IMG/VR virus record: IMGVR_UViG_3300025543_005580
Coordinates: 1 to 64,000 of that record
DNA length: 64,000 nt
Strand: one strand, 5' to 3'
Source of the DNA: a virus
A program made the position numbers and the translations under genes. A model generated the notes under the pieces. It worked only from the letters and a program-made list of their open reading frames with translations. It made no database searches and was not told the DNA's origin. Each line of letters opens with the position of its first letter. Position 1 is the stretch's first letter. This document shows, piece after piece, positions 1 to 8,096 of this stretch.

Positions 1-133
1 AAAACATAAAGGCACCATTTAATAAACCAACCATCACAACAGGTGTCTTATCCCCACGATGGTCATCAGCAATTTGTTTAGCTATAATTTTTGTTTGGAT
101 ATCAATATCCTTAGCTTTAATTAATTCCTTCAT
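1..133 (-). CDS. hpt: Hypoxanthine phosphoribosyltransferase-like protein, N-terminal part (runs off the window edge)
   Basis: Not in the ORF track. Manual translation from the ATG at 133 gives MKELIKAKDIDIQTKIIAKQIADDHRGDKTPVVMVGLLNGAFMF, which matches the HPRT N-terminus (VGxLxGxxxF loop). Confidence 0.8.
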   Translation of the reverse strand, partial: MKELIKAKDIDIQTKIIAKQIADDHRGDKTPVVMVGLLNGAFMF

Positions 134-134
134 A

Positions 135-1895
135 TTAGTATATTCTATAATCTTTTTTTTCTATAACTGTATTTTCTAATACTAAAGCAGGTAAACCATT
201 TTTTACATAACTTTTAATAGCATCTAAAGGTGTTTCAACAATTGGTTCTCCAGGTCCATTAAATGAAGTATTTAGTACTAAAGGAATACCACTTGCTTTG
301 TAAAATGTATTAATTAAATCATAATATGATTTATTCATTTCTTCAGTAACGGATTGGTATCTTGAAGTACCATCAATATGAACTACTGATGGGATTTTAT
401 TTCTCCATTTTTCCTTACAATATGATGTTACTAACATATAAGGTGAAAAAACATCTAAATCAAATACTTCACCTTGTTGTTCAAATAAGACTGATGGGGC
501 AAATGGTCTATACCATTCACGTTTTTTAATATCATGATTAATGTAATCCTTCATCCATACAGTAGATGGATTTGCGATAATACTTCTATTACCTAATGCT
601 CGAGGCCCAATTTCTGATCCTCCTTGTAATAATCCAATTGGTTTATTTTCCAAAAGCATTTCAGTAATATAACGGTCTCTTTCCTCTCGAGTATTAAAAT
701 GGGTAATATAGTTGTATTCAAAAAACTCACCATCTTCTTTTTTTAAGTATAATTGAATATCTTTAATGATATCATTTTTAGTATAAGTTTTACCAAAATA
801 AGGACTCATGAATGGGTTATTTTCAATAGGTTCCCATTTATTAAGATAATGCTTACCATAAAAAGCAGCTCCTAAAGGAATACCACTATCATCAGCTGGA
901 GGAGTAAAATAACATTCTTTAAATAATCCTGATGTAATAATAGCTTCATTAGCATTACAATTAAGGAAAGAACCCCCAGAACAACAAATTTTATCTAAAC
1001 CAGTAAGTTGTTTTACATATTTAGCTAACATAGTAGTTAAACGCACTTGTTCACGTTGATAGATACCTGCTACATTTGATTTACGTCTAAAATCAGCTTT
1101 ATATGTAATTTCAGGATAAACTTGAGTACCAGGAATAAAAAAATCTACAATATTACCTTCTTCATCTTCAATAATATTAGCAATATATTCCTGAGTTGCT
1201 AACCATTCTGGGTCAGCGTATGAAGCTAATCCCATTAATTTACCTGCTTGCCAATTTGATGTTTTTTCATCAAAAGTTAATTGCATAGTACCTTGAGCAT
1301 ACATACATCCAACGGATAATTCTTCATCATCAAATGTATAAGGTTCAGGATATTTAATCCATTTTTTTAATACTTCCTCGTATTTACCTTTATTAAATTT
1401 AAATAAAGTAATAGCTTCACCCCATTTTAAACCTGTGGGTAGTTTAGGGAGTTTACCATATTTTTCTGTAAAATATTGGTGTGCTTTAGAATTTGTATCA
1501 TGAACATTTCCCATAGCATCAGCAACAATTACAGCAGCTTCATCATAACCAGAAGCATAAAATGTTGAATATGCATGAGCTACGTGGTGGGGAACAAATT
1601 TTAACTTACTTAATGGTTGTGCAAGATATTGTTGGAATTGAGGTTCTACAACATCATCCATTTCTGCTGTATTATAACTATAAACATCCACATCATCATA
1701 TGTAAGTCCTAAAGTATCTAAACAATAGTTAATTGATAATAAGGGAATATCTGTATTAAAGGGCATATCACGTTTTACTCGTGATAGTCTTTCTTCCATA
1801 ATTCCTACTTGAACCTTATCATCAATTACAATAACTGCTCCTTTATCATGACCTACTGAAAAGCCAAGACTAATTAATTTTCCGTCTTTTGTCAT
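135..1895 (-). CDS. Carbamoyltransferase, NodU/CmcH/TobZ family
   Basis: Motifs GHD, EERLSRVK, HHVAHA, GKLMGLASY, SGGxFLNC, DxGxxLGAA, GPRALGNRSI, KxREWYRPFAP, HIDGTSR and LNTSFN. Confidence 0.93.
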   Translation of the reverse strand: MTKDGKLISLGFSVGHDKGAVIVIDDKVQVGIMEERLSRVKRDMPFNTDIPLLSINYCLDTLGLTYDDVDVYSYNTAEMDDVVEPQFQQYLAQPLSKLKFVPHHVAHAYSTFYASGYDEAAVIVADAMGNVHDTNSKAHQYFTEKYGKLPKLPTGLKWGEAITLFKFNKGKYEEVLKKWIKYPEPYTFDDEELSVGCMYAQGTMQLTFDEKTSNWQAGKLMGLASYADPEWLATQEYIANIIEDEEGNIVDFFIPGTQVYPEITYKADFRRKSNVAGIYQREQVRLTTMLAKYVKQLTGLDKICCSGGSFLNCNANEAIITSGLFKECYFTPPADDSGIPLGAAFYGKHYLNKWEPIENNPFMSPYFGKTYTKNDIIKDIQLYLKKEDGEFFEYNYITHFNTREERDRYITEMLLENKPIGLLQGGSEIGPRALGNRSIIANPSTVWMKDYINHDIKKREWYRPFAPSVLFEQQGEVFDLDVFSPYMLVTSYCKEKWRNKIPSVVHIDGTSRYQSVTEEMNKSYYDLINTFYKASGIPLVLNTSFNGPGEPIVETPLDAIKSYVKNGLPALVLENTVIEKKDYRIY

Positions 1896-2266
1896 CTTTT
1901 TCCTCCGTAATATTCTTTAGCGTGACCTTCATTGATTAAAATTTTATTTACACTTATCTCTGGTAAGTTAGGGTTATCATTATATGTGTTTTCAACATAA
2001 ATTTCACCTAAACAACGACCATATTTTCCTACCCCATGAGATACTAAAATAAATTTATTTTCATTATCTTTTAGAATTTCAATTAAGCGAGTTTTAGCTG
2101 CTAATCCTTTTTTCTTTTCTTCTTTATCTCGAGTTCTAGATTCCCAAGCATCCATCCCCATCATTCTAATTCTAACTTTTTTCCAAGTATCGAATCCTAA
2201 ATCTACTAAGGCGTCTACTGTATCTCCATCTACTACTCTATCTACTGTTGCGTGGTAAGTATACAT
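1892..2266 (-). CDS. Thermonuclease (SNase-like) family nuclease
   Basis: RVVDGDT, IRxxGxDAxE, GKYGRCLG and VNKILINEGHA motifs. Confidence 0.88.
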   Translation of the reverse strand: MYTYHATVDRVVDGDTVDALVDLGFDTWKKVRIRMMGMDAWESRTRDKEEKKKGLAAKTRLIEILKDNENKFILVSHGVGKYGRCLGEIYVENTYNDNPNLPEISVNKILINEGHAKEYYGGKR

Positions 2267-2394
2267 TATTTATTTTCTAAAATTGTTTTTAATTTATCTA
2301 TGAGAGCCAGAACTTCATCCGGCTCCATAGTGATTGCACAACACACTGAAACATTTTCTTCTATTTTTTCTAATATTTCAAGTGCTTCTTCCAT
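2266..2394 (-). CDS. Small hypothetical protein (42 aa)
   Basis: Manual translation MEEALEILEKIEENVSVCCAITMEPDEVLALIDKLKTILENK. It fills the gap exactly, with TAATG stop/start overlaps on both sides. Confidence 0.7.
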   Translation of the reverse strand: MEEALEILEKIEENVSVCCAITMEPDEVLALIDKLKTILENK

Positions 2395-3197
2395 TATACT
2401 TGTCGTTTAGTATCGTAAGCAATAATGTGATCTCTACCAGTCATGTTATAACCATGTTCAGCACACATTTCAAATACTAAAGGATACATTTCAATTAATG
2501 TTTCTCTAGTATCACCTGCGGGCATTACAAATGTTTTATCTTTAGGAATATCGAGCTCTTGTCTGTAAGCTTCGATTTCATCGAGGCCTTTATCAGTCCC
2601 ATCCCAGACAGGCTTATAATGATAGTCAGTATGATAATCAATAGTCTTTCTAATGGCTTCAGTATTAAGGCGAAGACGATTGTGCGTTTGAACCATCTTT
2701 TCATCCGTAACTGATCCATTGGGAGTAAGGGCACCAACAACAGGGACACTATTACTAAACTTAGGTGACAGAGAAATGAGACCAATCGGATAATCGGTTT
2801 CGAGGAAATGAGAGCCTTCAGTCTCGATAGTAATGAGAATTCCTCTTTCATGAGCAAAATGTGTTAATTCATTAACTAATGCTGGGTGCATTGTTGGGGA
2901 ACCACCAGTTAACATCATTTCTTTAACGTGAGGATTCTCATCATAAATTTTGATAATATCATTAAATGTGAACCCACCTTTCTCAGGATGGATAGAAGTA
3001 TACCAACTATCACACCAACCCCCTTCGCCAAAAAAGCAACGATGAGTGCAACCAGTAGTACGAACAGCAATAGTAGGGCGACCAAAGCGGCTGCCTTCAC
3101 TTTGAACACATCTATATACTTCCAATACGGGGAGTACTTTATCATAATCTGTAATTCGCCCTAATGGGGCTACTTTATTCCATAATTTTGGATTCAT
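2394..3197 (-). CDS. queE: 7-carboxy-7-deazaguanine synthase (radical SAM)
   Basis: QSEG..G.P...VRTTGCTHRC(x8)CDS, LTGGSP, ITIETEGS and SLSPK; adjacent to queD. Confidence 0.9.
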   Translation of the reverse strand: MNPKLWNKVAPLGRITDYDKVLPVLEVYRCVQSEGSRFGRPTIAVRTTGCTHRCFFGEGGWCDSWYTSIHPEKGGFTFNDIIKIYDENPHVKEMMLTGGSPTMHPALVNELTHFAHERGILITIETEGSHFLETDYPIGLISLSPKFSNSVPVVGALTPNGSVTDEKMVQTHNRLRLNTEAIRKTIDYHTDYHYKPVWDGTDKGLDEIEAYRQELDIPKDKTFVMPAGDTRETLIEMYPLVFEMCAEHGYNMTGRDHIIAYDTKRQV

Positions 3198-3199
3198 AT

Positions 3200-3664
3200 T
3201 TATTTTACGTAATATGCAGCATTTTTACCATGCTCCATAAATTTAACTTTAGTTACCCTAACTCTATTTTTTGTTTCCATTTTAACAAACTCATTTAATT
3301 TATTAAAGATATACTCAGCAAATTTTTCAGCACCTGTAGCAGGGATTACTCTAATTTGGGCTACTTCTGCTGCTTCCATTTGTCTAAAAGCATCTAACCA
3401 CGGATCATCTTCAGCGATAATCATTGTGTGATCAAACATATAATCCATCCATGCTTTAGGTTGCATTCCATCAATTAATGTTGAGGCACGTTTCATACCA
3501 CCAAAATCCCAAACCCAATTTCTATGGTCTAACTCACCTTCAAAATATACTTTAAATGAAATGCCATAACCATGTACAAATCTACAATGTGTGTCTTCTG
3601 CTTTCCATTGACGGAATACTGTACTAAATCCATCAAATACTTTACTTGATTGAAATTTACTCAT
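3200..3664 (-). CDS. queD: 6-carboxy-5,6,7,8-tetrahydropterin synthase
   Basis: HCRFVHGY, WVWDFG, FDHT and a C-terminal V.F.E motif. Confidence 0.9.
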   Translation of the reverse strand: MSKFQSSKVFDGFSTVFRQWKAEDTHCRFVHGYGISFKVYFEGELDHRNWVWDFGGMKRASTLIDGMQPKAWMDYMFDHTMIIAEDDPWLDAFRQMEAAEVAQIRVIPATGAEKFAEYIFNKLNEFVKMETKNRVRVTKVKFMEHGKNAAYYVK

Positions 3665-3917
3665 TTGTATAAAAATCTATTACTTGTTGTTTTGATAAAC
3701 CTCCTACTTTACGACCCAATTCATTCCCATCTAGATCAGTTAAAACTAATGTTGGTATACTTTTAACATTATATTTTTGTACTAAACTTGGTTCATAATC
3801 AACATTAATTTTCTTAACGTTCATTCCTTCACTAATTAGACTATCCATAACTGGTCCTAACATTTTACAAGGTCCACACCACGGGGCTGAGAAGTAAATA
3901 ATTCCTTTGTGATTCAT
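3657..3917 (-). CDS. Thioredoxin
   Basis: FSAPWCGPCK active site and the SIPT cis-Pro motif. Confidence 0.92.
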   Translation of the reverse strand: MNHKGIIYFSAPWCGPCKMLGPVMDSLISEGMNVKKINVDYEPSLVQKYNVKSIPTLVLTDLDGNELGRKVGGLSKQQVIDFYTNE

Positions 3918-3932
3918 AATTTTATTTTTTAT

Positions 3933-4190
3933 TTATACTAATTCTTCTATAATTCCTACTATTTCACTCAATATAAGTAAAATAGTTGCAGTAACCAAAT
4001 TAAAGGGGAGGAACACGTACCCTAAAATACGAATTCCAGATTTTATAAAACTTACATAACGATGCCATTTTTGGTCTGGCATGTGTTCTAATTTAGATCC
4101 TGTGTAAAGAGTTGCCGGGTTGGGATATATATTATCATTATCCCCTGGGTTACCTAACCCTTTAGCATTCATAATTTCTCTATCACTCAT
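3933..4190 (-). CDS. Small membrane protein
   Basis: Hydrophobic C-terminal half; overlaps the queC stop. Confidence 0.6.
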   Translation of the reverse strand: MSDREIMNAKGLGNPGDNDNIYPNPATLYTGSKLEHMPDQKWHRYVSFIKSGIRILGYVFLPFNLVTATILLILSEIVGIIEELV

Positions 4191-5022
4191 GGCTTTCTAA
4201 TACTTTAGTTACGTGTTCTACTACATGATCCCAACTAACAATACCTGTTTCATCCTCGTAAATTACAGGATCAGGACGACCTAATTTAATAAATGCTTCA
4301 ACTCGTTCTACACTTGATGCTGATTTATAATCACTATTTCCACTTGGATAAGGTTTATATGATGTATTTGTACGAGAATAAACTTCATTAAAATCAATAC
4401 CTAATGTTTCACATAATATTTCTCCATCTTGTAGGATAGTGAATTTATCTCCTAATAAATAAGGTGTCCAATAATGTACTCTTTCAGCTTCCCAATTACC
4501 TAATCTAAAAGCTTCATCATCTGCATCTCTAAATTCCTGTCTACAATCTGGATAAATTGAATGGTCTCCTGCGTGGATGCCTAAAGCAATATCTGTGTTT
4601 TCTTCTGTCCTATTTGCTACTGATAGAGCAACGGCTTGAGTAATAGAAGCAAATATTTTATTCCTATTAGGAACAACTGTTGCTTTCATATTATCTTCGG
4701 CATAATGCCCTTCAGGTACATCATCTCCACCTTCAACTAGTGCAGAATCAAGTAAATCAACTAACCCATTTAACTTAATAACTTGGTATTTAATTCTACA
4801 ACCTCCATAACAATCATTTTCATTACATTGTTCATTTAAATAATCAACTAATGATTGAGCTCGTTCTAATTCAACTCTATGTTTTTGACCATAATCAAAT
4901 GATAAAGCTGTTACTGTGTCATACTCATTTAGTGCCTTAAGCAACAACGTTGAGCTATCCATACCACCTGAAAGTGATACTACTACGTGTTTTCCTTTGT
5001 TAAAATTCATTTCTAATTGCAT
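4183..5022 (-). CDS. queC: 7-cyano-7-deazaguanine (preQ0) synthase
   Basis: SLSGGMDSS PP-loop, SFDYGQKH..EL, TVVPNRN and YPDCR. Confidence 0.93.
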   Translation of the reverse strand: MQLEMNFNKGKHVVVSLSGGMDSSTLLLKALNEYDTVTALSFDYGQKHRVELERAQSLVDYLNEQCNENDCYGGCRIKYQVIKLNGLVDLLDSALVEGGDDVPEGHYAEDNMKATVVPNRNKIFASITQAVALSVANRTEENTDIALGIHAGDHSIYPDCRQEFRDADDEAFRLGNWEAERVHYWTPYLLGDKFTILQDGEILCETLGIDFNEVYSRTNTSYKPYPSGNSDYKSASSVERVEAFIKLGRPDPVIYEDETGIVSWDHVVEHVTKVLESHE

Positions 5023-5056
5023 GTTTTATTTGCCAGGTATGTTTTAAGGATATAGG

Positions 5057-5311
5057 CTAATCCTGTGGTTTATCTTCTGGGGATGGGAAATCAAATTCTC
5101 CTTTACTATTACGGATTGGTTCAACAACTCGAATAATAAAGTTAATACCTTTTAATGTAAATTCCCCGCCTTGTTGTAACATTTTGCGGAAAAATTGTTC
5201 TTGGTTTTCATTCCAATCCTTACTCAAATTAATTATTACATCCTTATCTTCTACTCTTTTTCCATCTATATAGATTTTTTGAGTACTTCGTATTGCTTGT
5301 TTAGTTAACAT
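5057..5311 (-). CDS. Hypothetical protein
   Basis: ORF in the tightly packed co-directional gene array. Confidence 0.6.
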   Translation of the reverse strand: MLTKQAIRSTQKIYIDGKRVEDKDVIINLSKDWNENQEQFFRKMLQQGGEFTLKGINFIIRVVEPIRNSKGEFDFPSPEDKPQD

Positions 5312-5314
5312 ATT

Positions 5315-5872
5315 TTATATTTCTTTCATTACTTTATCTAATTTTTCTTGGAGTATAGTAAACTCAGGATCTACTACTTCTTCCCAAAAGTTTCTATCAT
5401 AGTCCTCCTCTTCTCCCTCAATTTCTTCTTCCCATTCATATTCATCTAAATCATGGTTTTCTTCTGAAATTATTTCTCCATAATAAACTTCGAATACCCC
5501 AATTGGTTGGTATCCTTCATCCCAATATTTACCTGAGACTTTGATTTCATCATCAATTTCAGCCATTTGTCTATAAATCTCTAAAATCATATCTGATGGA
5601 GGATACCAAGCTGAGTCTAAGTAGATTTCACATCTATTATCACTTGAACGATAATATCCTTCATCGTAAATCTCAACCCATTTTGAACCAATTCTATCGA
5701 TTAGTAGTTCTGCTTTAGCACCAAACTCATCTATGATGTGAGGATTTTCTTCTTGATTTGGGTAAGGTCCACTATGACACTTTTCAAATCGTTCTACAAA
5801 ATTGTCAATTGCTTCTTTAGATCCTTCTATATAGATCTCTGTTCTATTACTATTCGCCATCTTCGTCTTCAA
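5315..5872 (-). CDS. Acidic hypothetical protein, possibly YubB/DUF1281 ferredoxin-like fold (probable start M5, MANSN)
   Basis: N-terminal N...I.G pattern and a DSAWYPP motif resembling the family FxTAWxPP, plus Y.DEG. Confidence 0.5.
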   Translation of the reverse strand: MKTKMANSNRTEIYIEGSKEAIDNFVERFEKCHSGPYPNQEENPHIIDEFGAKAELLIDRIGSKWVEIYDEGYYRSSDNRCEIYLDSAWYPPSDMILEIYRQMAEIDDEIKVSGKYWDEGYQPIGVFEVYYGEIISEENHDLDEYEWEEEIEGEEEDYDRNFWEEVVDPEFTILQEKLDKVMKEI

Positions 5873-6059
5873 TTAATTCGGGCCATTCAGAATCTTCAAG
5901 ACATTTATCACGAGCTAATTCAAATTCAACTTCGTCTAAAACTTCTTCTTGTAGGTCCTCATCACCTGATTTCCACTTTTCAATTTGTTCAGGAGTTAAA
6001 TCCTCGGTTTCTTCCCATCTGTAATCAGTATAGGTCACCATTTTTCTTAATTTAGCCAT
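5850..6059 (-). CDS. Small acidic hypothetical protein
   Basis: ORF overlaps its neighbours in operon fashion. Confidence 0.6.
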   Translation of the reverse strand: MAKLRKMVTYTDYRWEETEDLTPEQIEKWKSGDEDLQEEVLDEVEFELARDKCLEDSEWPELIEDEDGE

Positions 6060-6243
6060 TTGCTTGAAAATATAATTTTAAAAAGTTTTCAGGGTAAAGC
6101 ACTACATCCCCTTTATATCCCTTTGTTTCAACATATCTAGTATCAAGTGGAATTCCCATTGAAACTGCAGAAGCTGTTGTTTGTGCTCCTAATTCTTTAC
6201 CACCAGCTTTGCCTAGGTAATCATATAAACTAATCATTTTCAT
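6052..6243 (-). CDS. Small hypothetical protein
   Basis: ORF packed in the operon (SLYDYLGKA...Y.G.V.LYP..FL). Confidence 0.6.
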   Translation of the reverse strand: MKMISLYDYLGKAGGKELGAQTTASAVSMGIPLDTRYVETKGYKGDVVLYPENFLKLYFQANG

Positions 6244-6244
6244 T

Positions 6245-7036
6245 TTATAAGTTATTTATTGTTCTAAATTTATTTAAATTATGAGTTAGTGTTTCAAAGT
6301 CAAAGTTATTATTCCCATCCATGTAAAAATAATCATTCATATTTGCTTTTGGTTTGCTGTCTAATCCCGCACTTGTATAACGAATATTTTCTAACGTCGC
6401 CATTACTGGGTTTGATGTATCTATTGATTCAATACATTCAAATCCGCGATACCAACCAAATTCTTGTGGTACTGAGCATCCTAATAAATGAATTCGATCG
6501 TTTTGTGAGATTACTTGGGTTTTATATAAAGCAGAAATTACTGATAATCGTCCCAGGGCCTTACCAATATCAGGATTAGGATGAGGGACAACATCATTAT
6601 AATAAGAAGCACCGTATGAAAAAGCAATTTTTTGATATCCTAAGTCTTTATATGTTTGATAACAAGTAGCAGCTTCATGGATTGTAGTTGCTTGGACTAC
6701 TGCCACTTTTTCTACTCCTTTAGGTAATTGGATTTGAGCCCATTTACGAGCATTTACTACAGATGCATTTCTATCACACCAAACATCAGGTATAATAAAT
6801 TCTTGGGGACGTAATTTATCAACCCATTTTAACAAACCATCATCACCATAACTTTCTCCAAGTTCATGAAGAGAATTATCTAGAATAATGTGCCTTCCTT
6901 TTTCTCTAGCATTTATAAAATAGGCAGCATAATCTGGTTCTTCATCTAATAAATGAACAAGAGCATAATCATAATCATTAAAGTATCTACTATCTTCTAG
7001 TAAAAATAAAGGAGTTTCATGACTTATTTTTATCAT
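6245..7036 (-). CDS. dpdA: TGT-fold guanine transglycosylase-like protein, probable DpdA
   Basis: IILDNS, IIPDV, AVVQ, IHLLG and SIDTS motifs of TGT-like barrels; lies upstream of queC/D/E. Confidence 0.7.
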   Translation of the reverse strand: MIKISHETPLFLLEDSRYFNDYDYALVHLLDEEPDYAAYFINAREKGRHIILDNSLHELGESYGDDGLLKWVDKLRPQEFIIPDVWCDRNASVVNARKWAQIQLPKGVEKVAVVQATTIHEAATCYQTYKDLGYQKIAFSYGASYYNDVVPHPNPDIGKALGRLSVISALYKTQVISQNDRIHLLGCSVPQEFGWYRGFECIESIDTSNPVMATLENIRYTSAGLDSKPKANMNDYFYMDGNNNFDFETLTHNLNKFRTINNL

Positions 7037-7166
7037 AACTTTTTAATTTAATATAAATATAATTTAAGGTTGGGGATATTCCAAGTCCACTTAAAAGAAA
7101 AGTAAAAATATTTGGATGCCAATGCTCTCCACAAAATCCTAAACTATGTTTTAATACTTCAATCAT
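7017..7166 (-). CDS. Small hypothetical protein (49 aa)
   Basis: Manual translation MIEVLKHSLGFCGEHWHPNIFTFLLSGLGISPTLNYIYIKLKSYDKNKS; starts a few nt after the thyA stop. Confidence 0.5.
   Translation of the reverse strand: MIEVLKHSLGFCGEHWHPNIFTFLLSGLGISPTLNYIYIKLKSYDKNKS
7054..7084 (-). promoter_or_regulatory. Bacteroidota-type promoter (TTG-N20-TATATTTA) upstream of the dpdA-like gene
   Basis: Plus strand TAAATATA at 7054-7061 and CAA at 7082-7084; same 20-nt spacing as five other sites. Confidence 0.65.
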
Positions 7167-7169
7167 AAT

Positions 7170-8096
7170 TTAATTACTTAAAGGTGCTTTAATTGCTGTT
7201 GCTGATTGGTAATCTATTAGTTCGTAATCAAACTCACCATTTAAAATATCTACATTGGATAATTTAATAGTCGGTAAATCAAATCCATCTCTACTAATCT
7301 GCTCTTTAGCTTGCTCAACATGGTTATTATATAAATGAACATCACCTAAATTACCGATTAAATCTCCTGGTTTGTATCCTGTTTCTTCACATAACAGCAT
7401 TAGTAACATTCCGTATGATGCAATGTTAAAAGGTAGTCCTAAGAACGTATCAACACTTCTCTGATTCCACATTAAAGATAGTTTACCATCTGCTACATAA
7501 ACTTGGAAGCCGTAATGGCATGGAGGAAGAGTCATCTGATCTAACTCACCTACATTCCAAGCACTAACCATCAATCTTCTACTATCAGGGTTTGTTTTAA
7601 GATCATGGATTAGATTAGCAATTTGGTCAAAATGTTGAGGTATTAGTTTTCCTAATTGAATAGTAGGTCTGCTCCAATATCTCCATTGTGCTCCATAGAT
7701 AGGACCTAACTCACCCCACTTTTTAGCAAACTCATTATTTGTTTTGATTTTGTTGATGAATTCTTCTTGTGTTAAAAAATTACCAATAGGAACACCCGGT
7801 TGCATATTAACTTTTATTACATAGTTTTTATATGCATCACCATTCCAAATGTTACAACCATTGTCAACCAAATACTTAATATTGGTATCTCCTTTTAGAA
7901 ACCACTTTAATTCAGTCATCATAGTTTTAACTGCCATCTTCTTTGTGGTTAACAGAGGAAAACCATCTGACATTTTATGTCTGATTTGCATTCCAAATTT
8001 AGATAAAGTTCCGGTTCCGGTTCTATCTTTTTTTTCTTTTCCATTGTACAGAAGTTCAGCTAAAATACCTCTGTATTGTTCGTCTAATTTATTCAT
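7170..8096 (-). CDS. thyA: Thymidylate synthase
   Basis: DRTGTGT, FPLLTTKK, ELKWFL, LGPIYG.QWR, LPPCH, QRSVDTFLGLPFNIASY and HLYNNH. Confidence 0.97.
   Translation of the reverse strand: MNKLDEQYRGILAELLYNGKEKKDRTGTGTLSKFGMQIRHKMSDGFPLLTTKKMAVKTMMTELKWFLKGDTNIKYLVDNGCNIWNGDAYKNYVIKVNMQPGVPIGNFLTQEEFINKIKTNNEFAKKWGELGPIYGAQWRYWSRPTIQLGKLIPQHFDQIANLIHDLKTNPDSRRLMVSAWNVGELDQMTLPPCHYGFQVYVADGKLSLMWNQRSVDTFLGLPFNIASYGMLLMLLCEETGYKPGDLIGNLGDVHLYNNHVEQAKEQISRDGFDLPTIKLSNVDILNGEFDYELIDYQSATAIKAPLSN

Follow-up and report, generated by a model that had tools for sequence, protein, structure and literature searches.

The first 64 kb of the 111,989-bp IMG/VR contig IMGVR_UViG_3300025543_005580 (estimated completeness 69%), a stretch of 64,000 nucleotides called the window below, contains a run of genes, all on the minus strand, that leaves the contig at position 1. 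Judged by its homologies, this run belongs to a known kind of system, the DpdA3-type modification of DNA with 7-deazaguanine, in a variant that has the full preQ0 pathway, lacks QueF and DpdN and uses a DpdA3 from a distinct subclade; the phage is probably an immuto-like aquatic myophage with a host among the Flavobacteria. The carbamoyltransferase (CT) gene in the run is a lineage-specific insertion in a hypervariable slot between QueE and a phosphoribosyltransferase (PRTase), and the HGPRT gene that follows it is a standard conserved companion of this cluster family. We favour, with moderate confidence, a combined reading in which the module would put dPreQ0 into DNA, HGPRT would serve in salvage and CT would be glycan-directed cargo.

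Using Pfam, NCBIfam and PHROGs, we were able to assign the main proteins of the run to families. The preQ0 pathway is represented by QueC (7-cyano-7-deazaguanine synthase, 279 aa, 4183..5022; PF06508 with E 3e-38, TIGR00364), QueD (6-carboxytetrahydropterin synthase, 154 aa, 3200..3664; PF01242, 69% identity to QueD of the Flavobacterium phage immuto) and QueE (radical-SAM CDG synthase, 267 aa, 2394..3197; Radical_SAM, QueE models as the top NCBIfam matches, 67% identity to immuto QueE). QueD retains the catalytic Cys of the CxxxHG motif (CRFVHGY) and is therefore QueD, not DpdL (PMC10516641). The DNA guanine transglycosylase DpdA3 (263 aa, 6245..7036) gave no Pfam (including TGT, PF01702) or NCBIfam match in hmmscan, and HHpred was needed to recognise members of this subfamily (PMC10516641). 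It matches phrog_19058 (E 7e-46) and has full-length tblastn matches to the immuto 'DNA guanine transglycosylase' (37.6% identity, E 5e-51) and to the CP220 group (35–37%); immuto, CP220 and phiST CGPG_00065 are named DpdA3 proteins in Cui et al. (PMC10516641). The run also includes a thioredoxin (86 aa, 3657..3917; PF00085, E 2e-17), a staphylococcal-nuclease-like (SNase) endonuclease (124 aa, 1892..2266; PF00565, phrog_452 endonuclease), CT (586 aa, 135..1895, NodU/CmcH/TobZ family; PF02543 Carbam_trans_N and PF16861 Carbam_trans_C), whose start is overlapped by the SNase gene by 4 bases, and the first 44 residues of HGPRT (2..133), which is cut by the contig end and has a full-length orthologue in relatives.

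A first-pass annotation of the window had named these genes, from a DpdA-like gene to an HPRT, as a tightly packed DpdA-type 7-deazaguanine DNA-modification operon, and on these points it holds: all of them were found, on the minus strand, where it had put them, QueC, QueD and QueE lie in one run with a DpdA3 homologue, and neighbouring genes are separated by gaps or overlaps of at most 34 bases, with the exception of 127 bases between QueE and SNase. The promoter it had placed at 7054–7084 did not survive, as the sigma-70 match at 7056–7084 (9/12) is at chance level (35 sites as compared to 44 ± 5.5 in shuffles).

The remaining genes of the operon were sought beyond the contig end. Three IMG/VR contigs (L004–L006) carry a CT that is 87–88% identical to the window CT, followed downstream by a 4HBT thioesterase, HGPRT, FolE, a 99-aa open reading frame (ORF), a MazG-like pyrophosphatase and PolB; in the window the thioesterase is missing and HGPRT comes directly after CT. 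Given the place of FolE downstream of CT in these contigs, FolE belongs to the operon. The 112-kb record itself contains no QueF (PF14489), no FolE and no second ThyA homologue, and QueF was absent from the contigs of L004–L006, which reach about 28 kb past the end of the window contig. The QueF and DpdN of immuto, used as tblastn queries, found nothing in the 112-kb record or the relatives' contigs, and neither was found in more distant phages, the only ones reached via the terminal gene of one relative's contig. To the wider picture, IMG/VR scans anchored on QueE and on FolE contributed 80 loci each (out of at least 599 and at least 431 matching contigs, respectively), which were mapped by tblastn, some contigs being in both sets. 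Among the mapped loci, QueF and DpdN are seen only with an immuto-type DpdA (L176, L192 and L249) and never with the DpdA3 type of the window. The earlier statement that folE and queF are not in the window is thus correct, with FolE just past the contig end in relatives; the search that it had proposed for the rest of the genome (folE, queF and a dCMP hydroxymethylase) succeeded for FolE, in relatives, and found neither QueF nor a D177 ThyA homologue in the 112 kb.

DpdA3 is co-encoded with QueC, QueD and QueE in the same run, and relatives have FolE in the syntenic position. With this set, FolE, QueD, QueE and QueC would convert GTP to preQ0, and the DpdA3 transglycosylase would swap guanine in the phage DNA for preQ0. 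Complete G replacement has been reported for the DpdA3 class (PMC10516641), and by analogy with other DpdA3 phages the predicted base, dPreQ0, probably has a high occupancy. If DpdA3 acts together with an entire preQ0 pathway and QueF is lacking, dPreQ0 is expected as a complete replacement in the DNA; none of the DpdA3 phages measured to date pairs DpdA3 with a preQ0 end point (PMC10516641). The phage family is aquatic and very abundant, with at least 599 IMG/VR contigs, and if this conservative reading holds, the window phage is one more guanine-replacing member.

The closest isolated phage is immuto, whose DNA has fdPreQ1 in place of dG (PMC10516641). Its genes are in the order ThyA ... thioesterase ... 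QueD, QueE, two small ORFs, PRTase, FolE, DUF4494, NTP pyrophosphohydrolase, DpdA, DpdN, Tmk, QueF. QueC and its neighbouring ORFs share 82% nucleotide identity with immuto (across 4379–6059), QueD, QueE, FolE, MazG and the thioesterase of the window and its relatives are 61–76% identical to those of immuto, and the two lineages have in common the ThyA type and the order QueD, QueE ... PRTase, FolE, one gene, MazG. They differ in that immuto has QueF and DpdN (its fdPreQ1 system) whereas neither was found in the window lineage, in their DpdA3 proteins, which are in separate subclades, in the PRTase (Gpt/XGPRT-like in immuto, HGPRT-type in the window lineage), in the polymerase (PolA in immuto, PolB in the window lineage) and in the slot after QueE, which unlike that of immuto holds CT and SNase in the window. 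CP220 (dADG) and phiST (dDG) also encode DpdA3 homologues (37% identity to that of CP220), and their pathways end at ADG or CDG (PMC10516641), whereas the window phage has the full preQ0 pathway and a QueC close to that of immuto.

As for HGPRT, a 167-aa orthologue in L006 scored 144.7 bits against TIGR01203 (cut-off 150) and matched solved HPRTs at E 1e-28. The conserved order in 159 related IMG/VR loci is DpdA3, small ORFs, QueC, Trx, QueD, QueE, the slot, PRTase, FolE, MazG, PolB. A 6-oxopurine PRTase is found no more than 2.5 kb from FolE in 91 of 113 evaluable loci, being HGPRT-type in 52 and Gpt-type in 39, and 55 of the 59 loci in which DpdA3 is seen have a PRTase beside FolE. The first-pass annotation had treated the HPRT as an extension of the operon; the near-universal PRTase beside FolE, found also in immuto with its fdPreQ1 DNA, contradicts this, and HGPRT is not peculiar to the window phage. 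Two non-orthologous PRTases, a Gpt/XGPRT-like protein of 131 aa (L171:3932-4327) and an HGPRT-like protein of 167 aa (L006:12141-12644), alternate in the same place, which argues for a real role. The likeliest role, from the gene content, is guanine salvage: HGPRT would recycle the guanine released by DpdA3 into GMP, and the MazG-like pyrophosphatase beside FolE would be a usual companion. HGPRT chemistry relies on N7. Of the two roles proposed earlier, guanine salvage is plausible, and phosphoribosylation of the deazapurine therefore fits less well. The near-universal PRTase in its two forms suggests a guanine-recycling loop, which was not discussed in the literature searched; that search found no HPRT linked to deazaguanine, and no phage CT tied to deazaguanine, beyond PMC8670742 and PMC10516641.

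The CT protein has a Kae1-like N-terminal and a YrdC-like C-terminal domain. Its best solved match is TobZ (E 1e-52, about 30% identity), and the solved relatives TobZ, NovN and GdmN are all O-carbamoyltransferases that act on hydroxyls of sugars or small molecules. In the alignment with TobZ, the HxxxH and D metal ligands, GPRALGNRS and REWYRPFAP are kept in CT, and these columns are invariant in a CT alignment; the metal-binding His/Asp residues, GPRALGNRS and REW(Y/W)RPFAP are likewise shared with NovN, GdmN and NodU. The window CT is nevertheless only about 30% identical to these enzymes, and it scored 150 bits against the NodU equivalog model (cut-off 1000). These features point to O-carbamoylation of a sugar-type hydroxyl as the most likely activity of CT.

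Its clade appears, from the distribution of homologues, to be viral: the best prokaryotic match is only 32% identical (one genome each from 185,579 species), identity rises to about 50% for thousands of metagenomic proteins, and a 90% identical homologue (P0002) is on a 156,774-bp contig. The nearest homologues (42–51% identity) are in complete phages of 297–321 kb, in a conserved block made up of HNH, two small ORFs, CT-A, in many cases also CT-B, an ORF and ClpP, and genes for a sulfotransferase, APS kinase, HAD hydrolase and cytidylyltransferase or an ATP-sulfurylase-like protein are found near these CTs. Neither QueC nor DpdA3 was found in three complete CT-bearing jumbo genomes (G001, G002 and G005), where ThyA is N177, and this CT clade therefore works without deazaguanine. 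The neighbourhood analysis of the clade that had been suggested as a check thus went against the proposed link to deazaguanine. We note that in L009:8902-14596 and L071:5627-13275 two tandem, non-orthologous CTs lie between HNH and ClpP, with a Nod-factor-like tailoring set, and that a 72-kb phage contig (L052:894-5360) has an ORF similar to the 185-aa ORF of the window, a glutamine-synthetase-like gene, thioredoxin, a 585-aa CT and glutaredoxin in one run.

Among the mapped loci, the window-type CT is at this position only in the window and in L004–L006. L174, whose DpdA3 is 79% identical to that of the window, lacks CT in its series of QueE, SNase, thioesterase and PRTase, and four other relatives with a DpdA3 at least 60% identical to that of the window (L182, L269, L298 and L316) are likewise without CT. 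The QueE–PRTase interval is hypervariable across relatives: its cargo includes a DegT/DnrJ sugar aminotransferase with a GNAT acetyltransferase (L182 and L181), Methyltransf_24 (L185), a prolyl-hydroxylase-type 2-oxoglutarate (2OG) oxygenase with Endonuclease_NS (L190) and DUF6445 (L189). Other slots are occupied in a similar way, with two GlcNAc-type glycosyltransferases, a CT with 'REWYRPFAP' like that of the window and an HtrL-like gene between MazG and PolB (L327 and L315), and, following a PolB that is split, a CT, ORFs of no assigned family and an FkbM methyltransferase (L178 and L216). Operon adjacency is thus weak evidence of shared function, as the variable slots gather glycan- and protein-tailoring cargo. 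Two further ideas were rejected: CT is not a generally common accessory gene of the phage family (none of the 14 long contigs from related phages carries one, and five of these contigs have a completeness of at least 95%), and SNase and CT do not form a functional pair (SNase occurs without CT in many relatives, and the two genes are convergent in the distant lineage L046–L051). The split PolB consists of parts of 560–592 aa and 309–310 aa with CT right after the second part (L173:15929-18540, L178:13171-15878 and L216:9332-11943); PolB of L006 is intact (893 aa).

The window has a fibre-decoration cluster at 36.8–43.4 kb, beside collagen-like fibre genes (the cluster and the fibres together span 36807–63964). 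It encodes a GT2-methyltransferase fusion, DUF6445, a 2OG oxygenase, two GT1-family (Glycos_transf_1) glycosyltransferases and a TibC/GT9-like transferase, and these families are those of the slot cargo of relatives. The collagen-like fibres of the phage itself, which would be glycosylated, offer the best candidate for the CT acceptor, namely one of their glycans; CT would stand outside the deazaguanine chemistry. The fibre genes include a 4,118-aa ORF, in a region with about 45% G+C (about 31% for most of the remaining window).

A less likely alternative is that CT is an auxiliary gene unconnected with fibres or DNA, whose substrate would be a small metabolite or a polysaccharide of the host envelope. 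PHROGs classifies the CT family as 'moron, auxiliary metabolic gene', cyanophages and pelagiphages sporadically carry similar 'Nol-like' CTs, and the sulfotransferase, APS kinase and ATP-sulfurylase-like genes that accompany the jumbo-phage CT are Nod-factor-like tailoring genes; however, no transporter, signal sequence evidence or sugar-nucleotide pathway was found beside the window CT. On present evidence this explanation and the one based on fibre glycans are not separable.

Several observations weigh against our combined reading. On the side of the base, about 20 kb of an assumed 160-kb genome lies outside the 112 kb and the roughly 28 kb that were searched, and DpdA3 is only 37% identical to that of immuto as compared to 61–76% for the pathway enzymes, a divergence that leaves room for a different inserted base. 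On the side of CT, its gene is co-directional within a nucleotide operon, overlaps the nuclease gene and lies about 35 kb from the fibre-glycosylation cluster. In the DpdA3 tree, every CT-bearing locus falls in one subclade, in which roughly one of every two evaluable lineages has a CT, and none was seen in at least 20 evaluable loci of other DpdA3 subclades. The CTs of the subclade are of three non-orthologous types (25–35% mutual identity) in three operon positions: the window type lies between SNase and thioesterase, the L178 type follows PolB, and the L187 type is found either after PolB or between QueC and Trx. Such repeated acquisition suggests selection for CT function in these phages and, taken with the tree, could reflect a functional tie to the DNA chemistry of the subclade. 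However, how similar the DpdA3 proteins are also reflects how closely the phages are related overall, and hence their host and fibre type, and the pattern therefore cannot separate a role in DNA from a role on glycans. Six distant relatives (L341, L342, L344, L349, L364 and L374) have an 'MPFAP'-type CT with 52% identity to that of the L187 type; a ThyA lies a few kb from this CT in L341 and L349 (its key residue is readable only in L349, as the canonical N177), and no hydroxymethylase is visible.

The recurrence of CTs bears on the proposal that CT tailors the deazaguanine, by N-carbamoylating dPreQ1 (made with a host or unseen QueF) to 7-(ureidomethyl)-7-deazaguanine or by N2 carbamoylation, in place of the DpdN of immuto. 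We regard this as unlikely. It could account for a CT embedded between QueE and the PRTase–FolE pair, for the lack in this lineage of DpdN and QueF, both of which immuto encodes at the corresponding locus, for at least three independent acquisitions of differing CTs inside one DpdA3 subclade and for the divergence of DpdA3, and the Kae1/TsaD-like family does include N-carbamoyl-type transfer to a nucleobase amine (t6A). However, preQ0 offers no hydroxyl or aminomethyl acceptor, so the proposal needs a host or unseen QueF, found in neither the 112 kb nor the further 28 kb or so of the three relatives, or an unprecedented N2 carbamoylation. The five same-DpdA3 relatives named above have no CT at all, the nearest CT homologues function in phages without QueC or DpdA3, and the same slots hold plainly sugar-directed enzymes. 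With CT an insertion, with homologues apart from deazaguanine genes and with no acceptor unless QueF is supplied, the suggestion in the first-pass annotation that CT decorates a deazaguanine (e.g. as a carbamoyl-preQ1) is unsupported. That the window CT and the non-orthologous CTs of sister phages all carbamoylate DNA to give an undescribed base (ureidomethyl- or N2-carbamoyl-7-deazaguanine) is correspondingly doubtful; if true, the operon slots would be a diversification hot spot for DNA hypermodification and the product a new class of base decoration.

The window ThyA (308 aa, 7170..8096, minus strand, upstream of the operon; PF00303, 317 bits) carries C146-H147 together with N177 ('LPFN'), and its matches to bacterial thymidylate synthases reach E 4e-84, in agreement with its earlier description as a canonical dUMP enzyme. 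It is the single ThyA homologue in the 112 kb, and no dCMP hydroxymethylase lies in the window. No D177 ThyA homologue was found in the window record or in CT-bearing relatives, in which the readable ThyAs are all N177. ThyAs of this phage group have 'IW(N/D)GDAY' instead of the usual 'IWDEW' and end in 'IKAPLSN' (the window, L002:105-1376 and L165–L169). A role of ThyA as a dUMP hydroxymethylase, considered because of 'IWNGDAY' and 'APLSN', was rejected, as the immuto ThyA is alike and immuto DNA contains dT (PMC10516641); a hydroxymethylase role is thus unlikely, and ThyA stands apart from the modification chemistry. Some ThyAs of the group carry long insertions (that of immuto has 423 aa). 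A Tet_JBP search came back empty, with its control also silent, and is uninformative on presence or absence.

The phage CT described by MetaGPA (eLife 2021, PMC8670742) acts on 5-hydroxymethylcytosine (5hmC) and co-occurs with D177 ThyA homologues. It resembles the window CT in being phage-encoded, in its Carbam_trans_N/C architecture and in lying near ThyA-family and MazG-like genes, and differs in its D177 partner, where the window record has N177 only. A 59-residue fragment of the 5hmC enzyme, the sole part compared, best matches the 'MPFAP' type (L047, L021 and L009_B, i.e. jumbo CT-B) and not the window CT. We therefore consider it very unlikely that the window CT modifies another base, e.g. 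a hydroxymethyl-pyrimidine made by a hydroxymethylase or oxygenase in the unseen part of the genome: although a CT of the same superfamily makes 5-carbamoyloxymethylcytosine and the Pfams that co-occur with it (ThyA family and PRA-PH/MazG) are neighbours here too (PMC8670742), the ThyA residues are those given above (N177 and H147, as in immuto and the readable CT-bearing relatives), and the window CT has TobZ-like G421, R423 and 'REWYRPFAP' where the published fragment has C421, T423 and 'MPFAP'.

Other genes in the run include five small ORFs of uncharacterised product that were absent from the first-pass annotation (6052–6243, 5850–6059, 5315–5872, 5057–5311 and 3933–4190, all on the minus strand). 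The first three (63, 69 and 185 aa, together 5315..6243) have only a sub-threshold DUF1281_C match, the fourth (84 aa) is without a family match, and the fifth (85 aa) is kept in relatives. The 69-aa and 185-aa ORFs (5315–6059; 82% nucleotide identity to immuto) adjoin QueC in the window phage, immuto and relatives and may be an unrecognised part of the pathway. Counterparts of these two ORFs are also found in L052.

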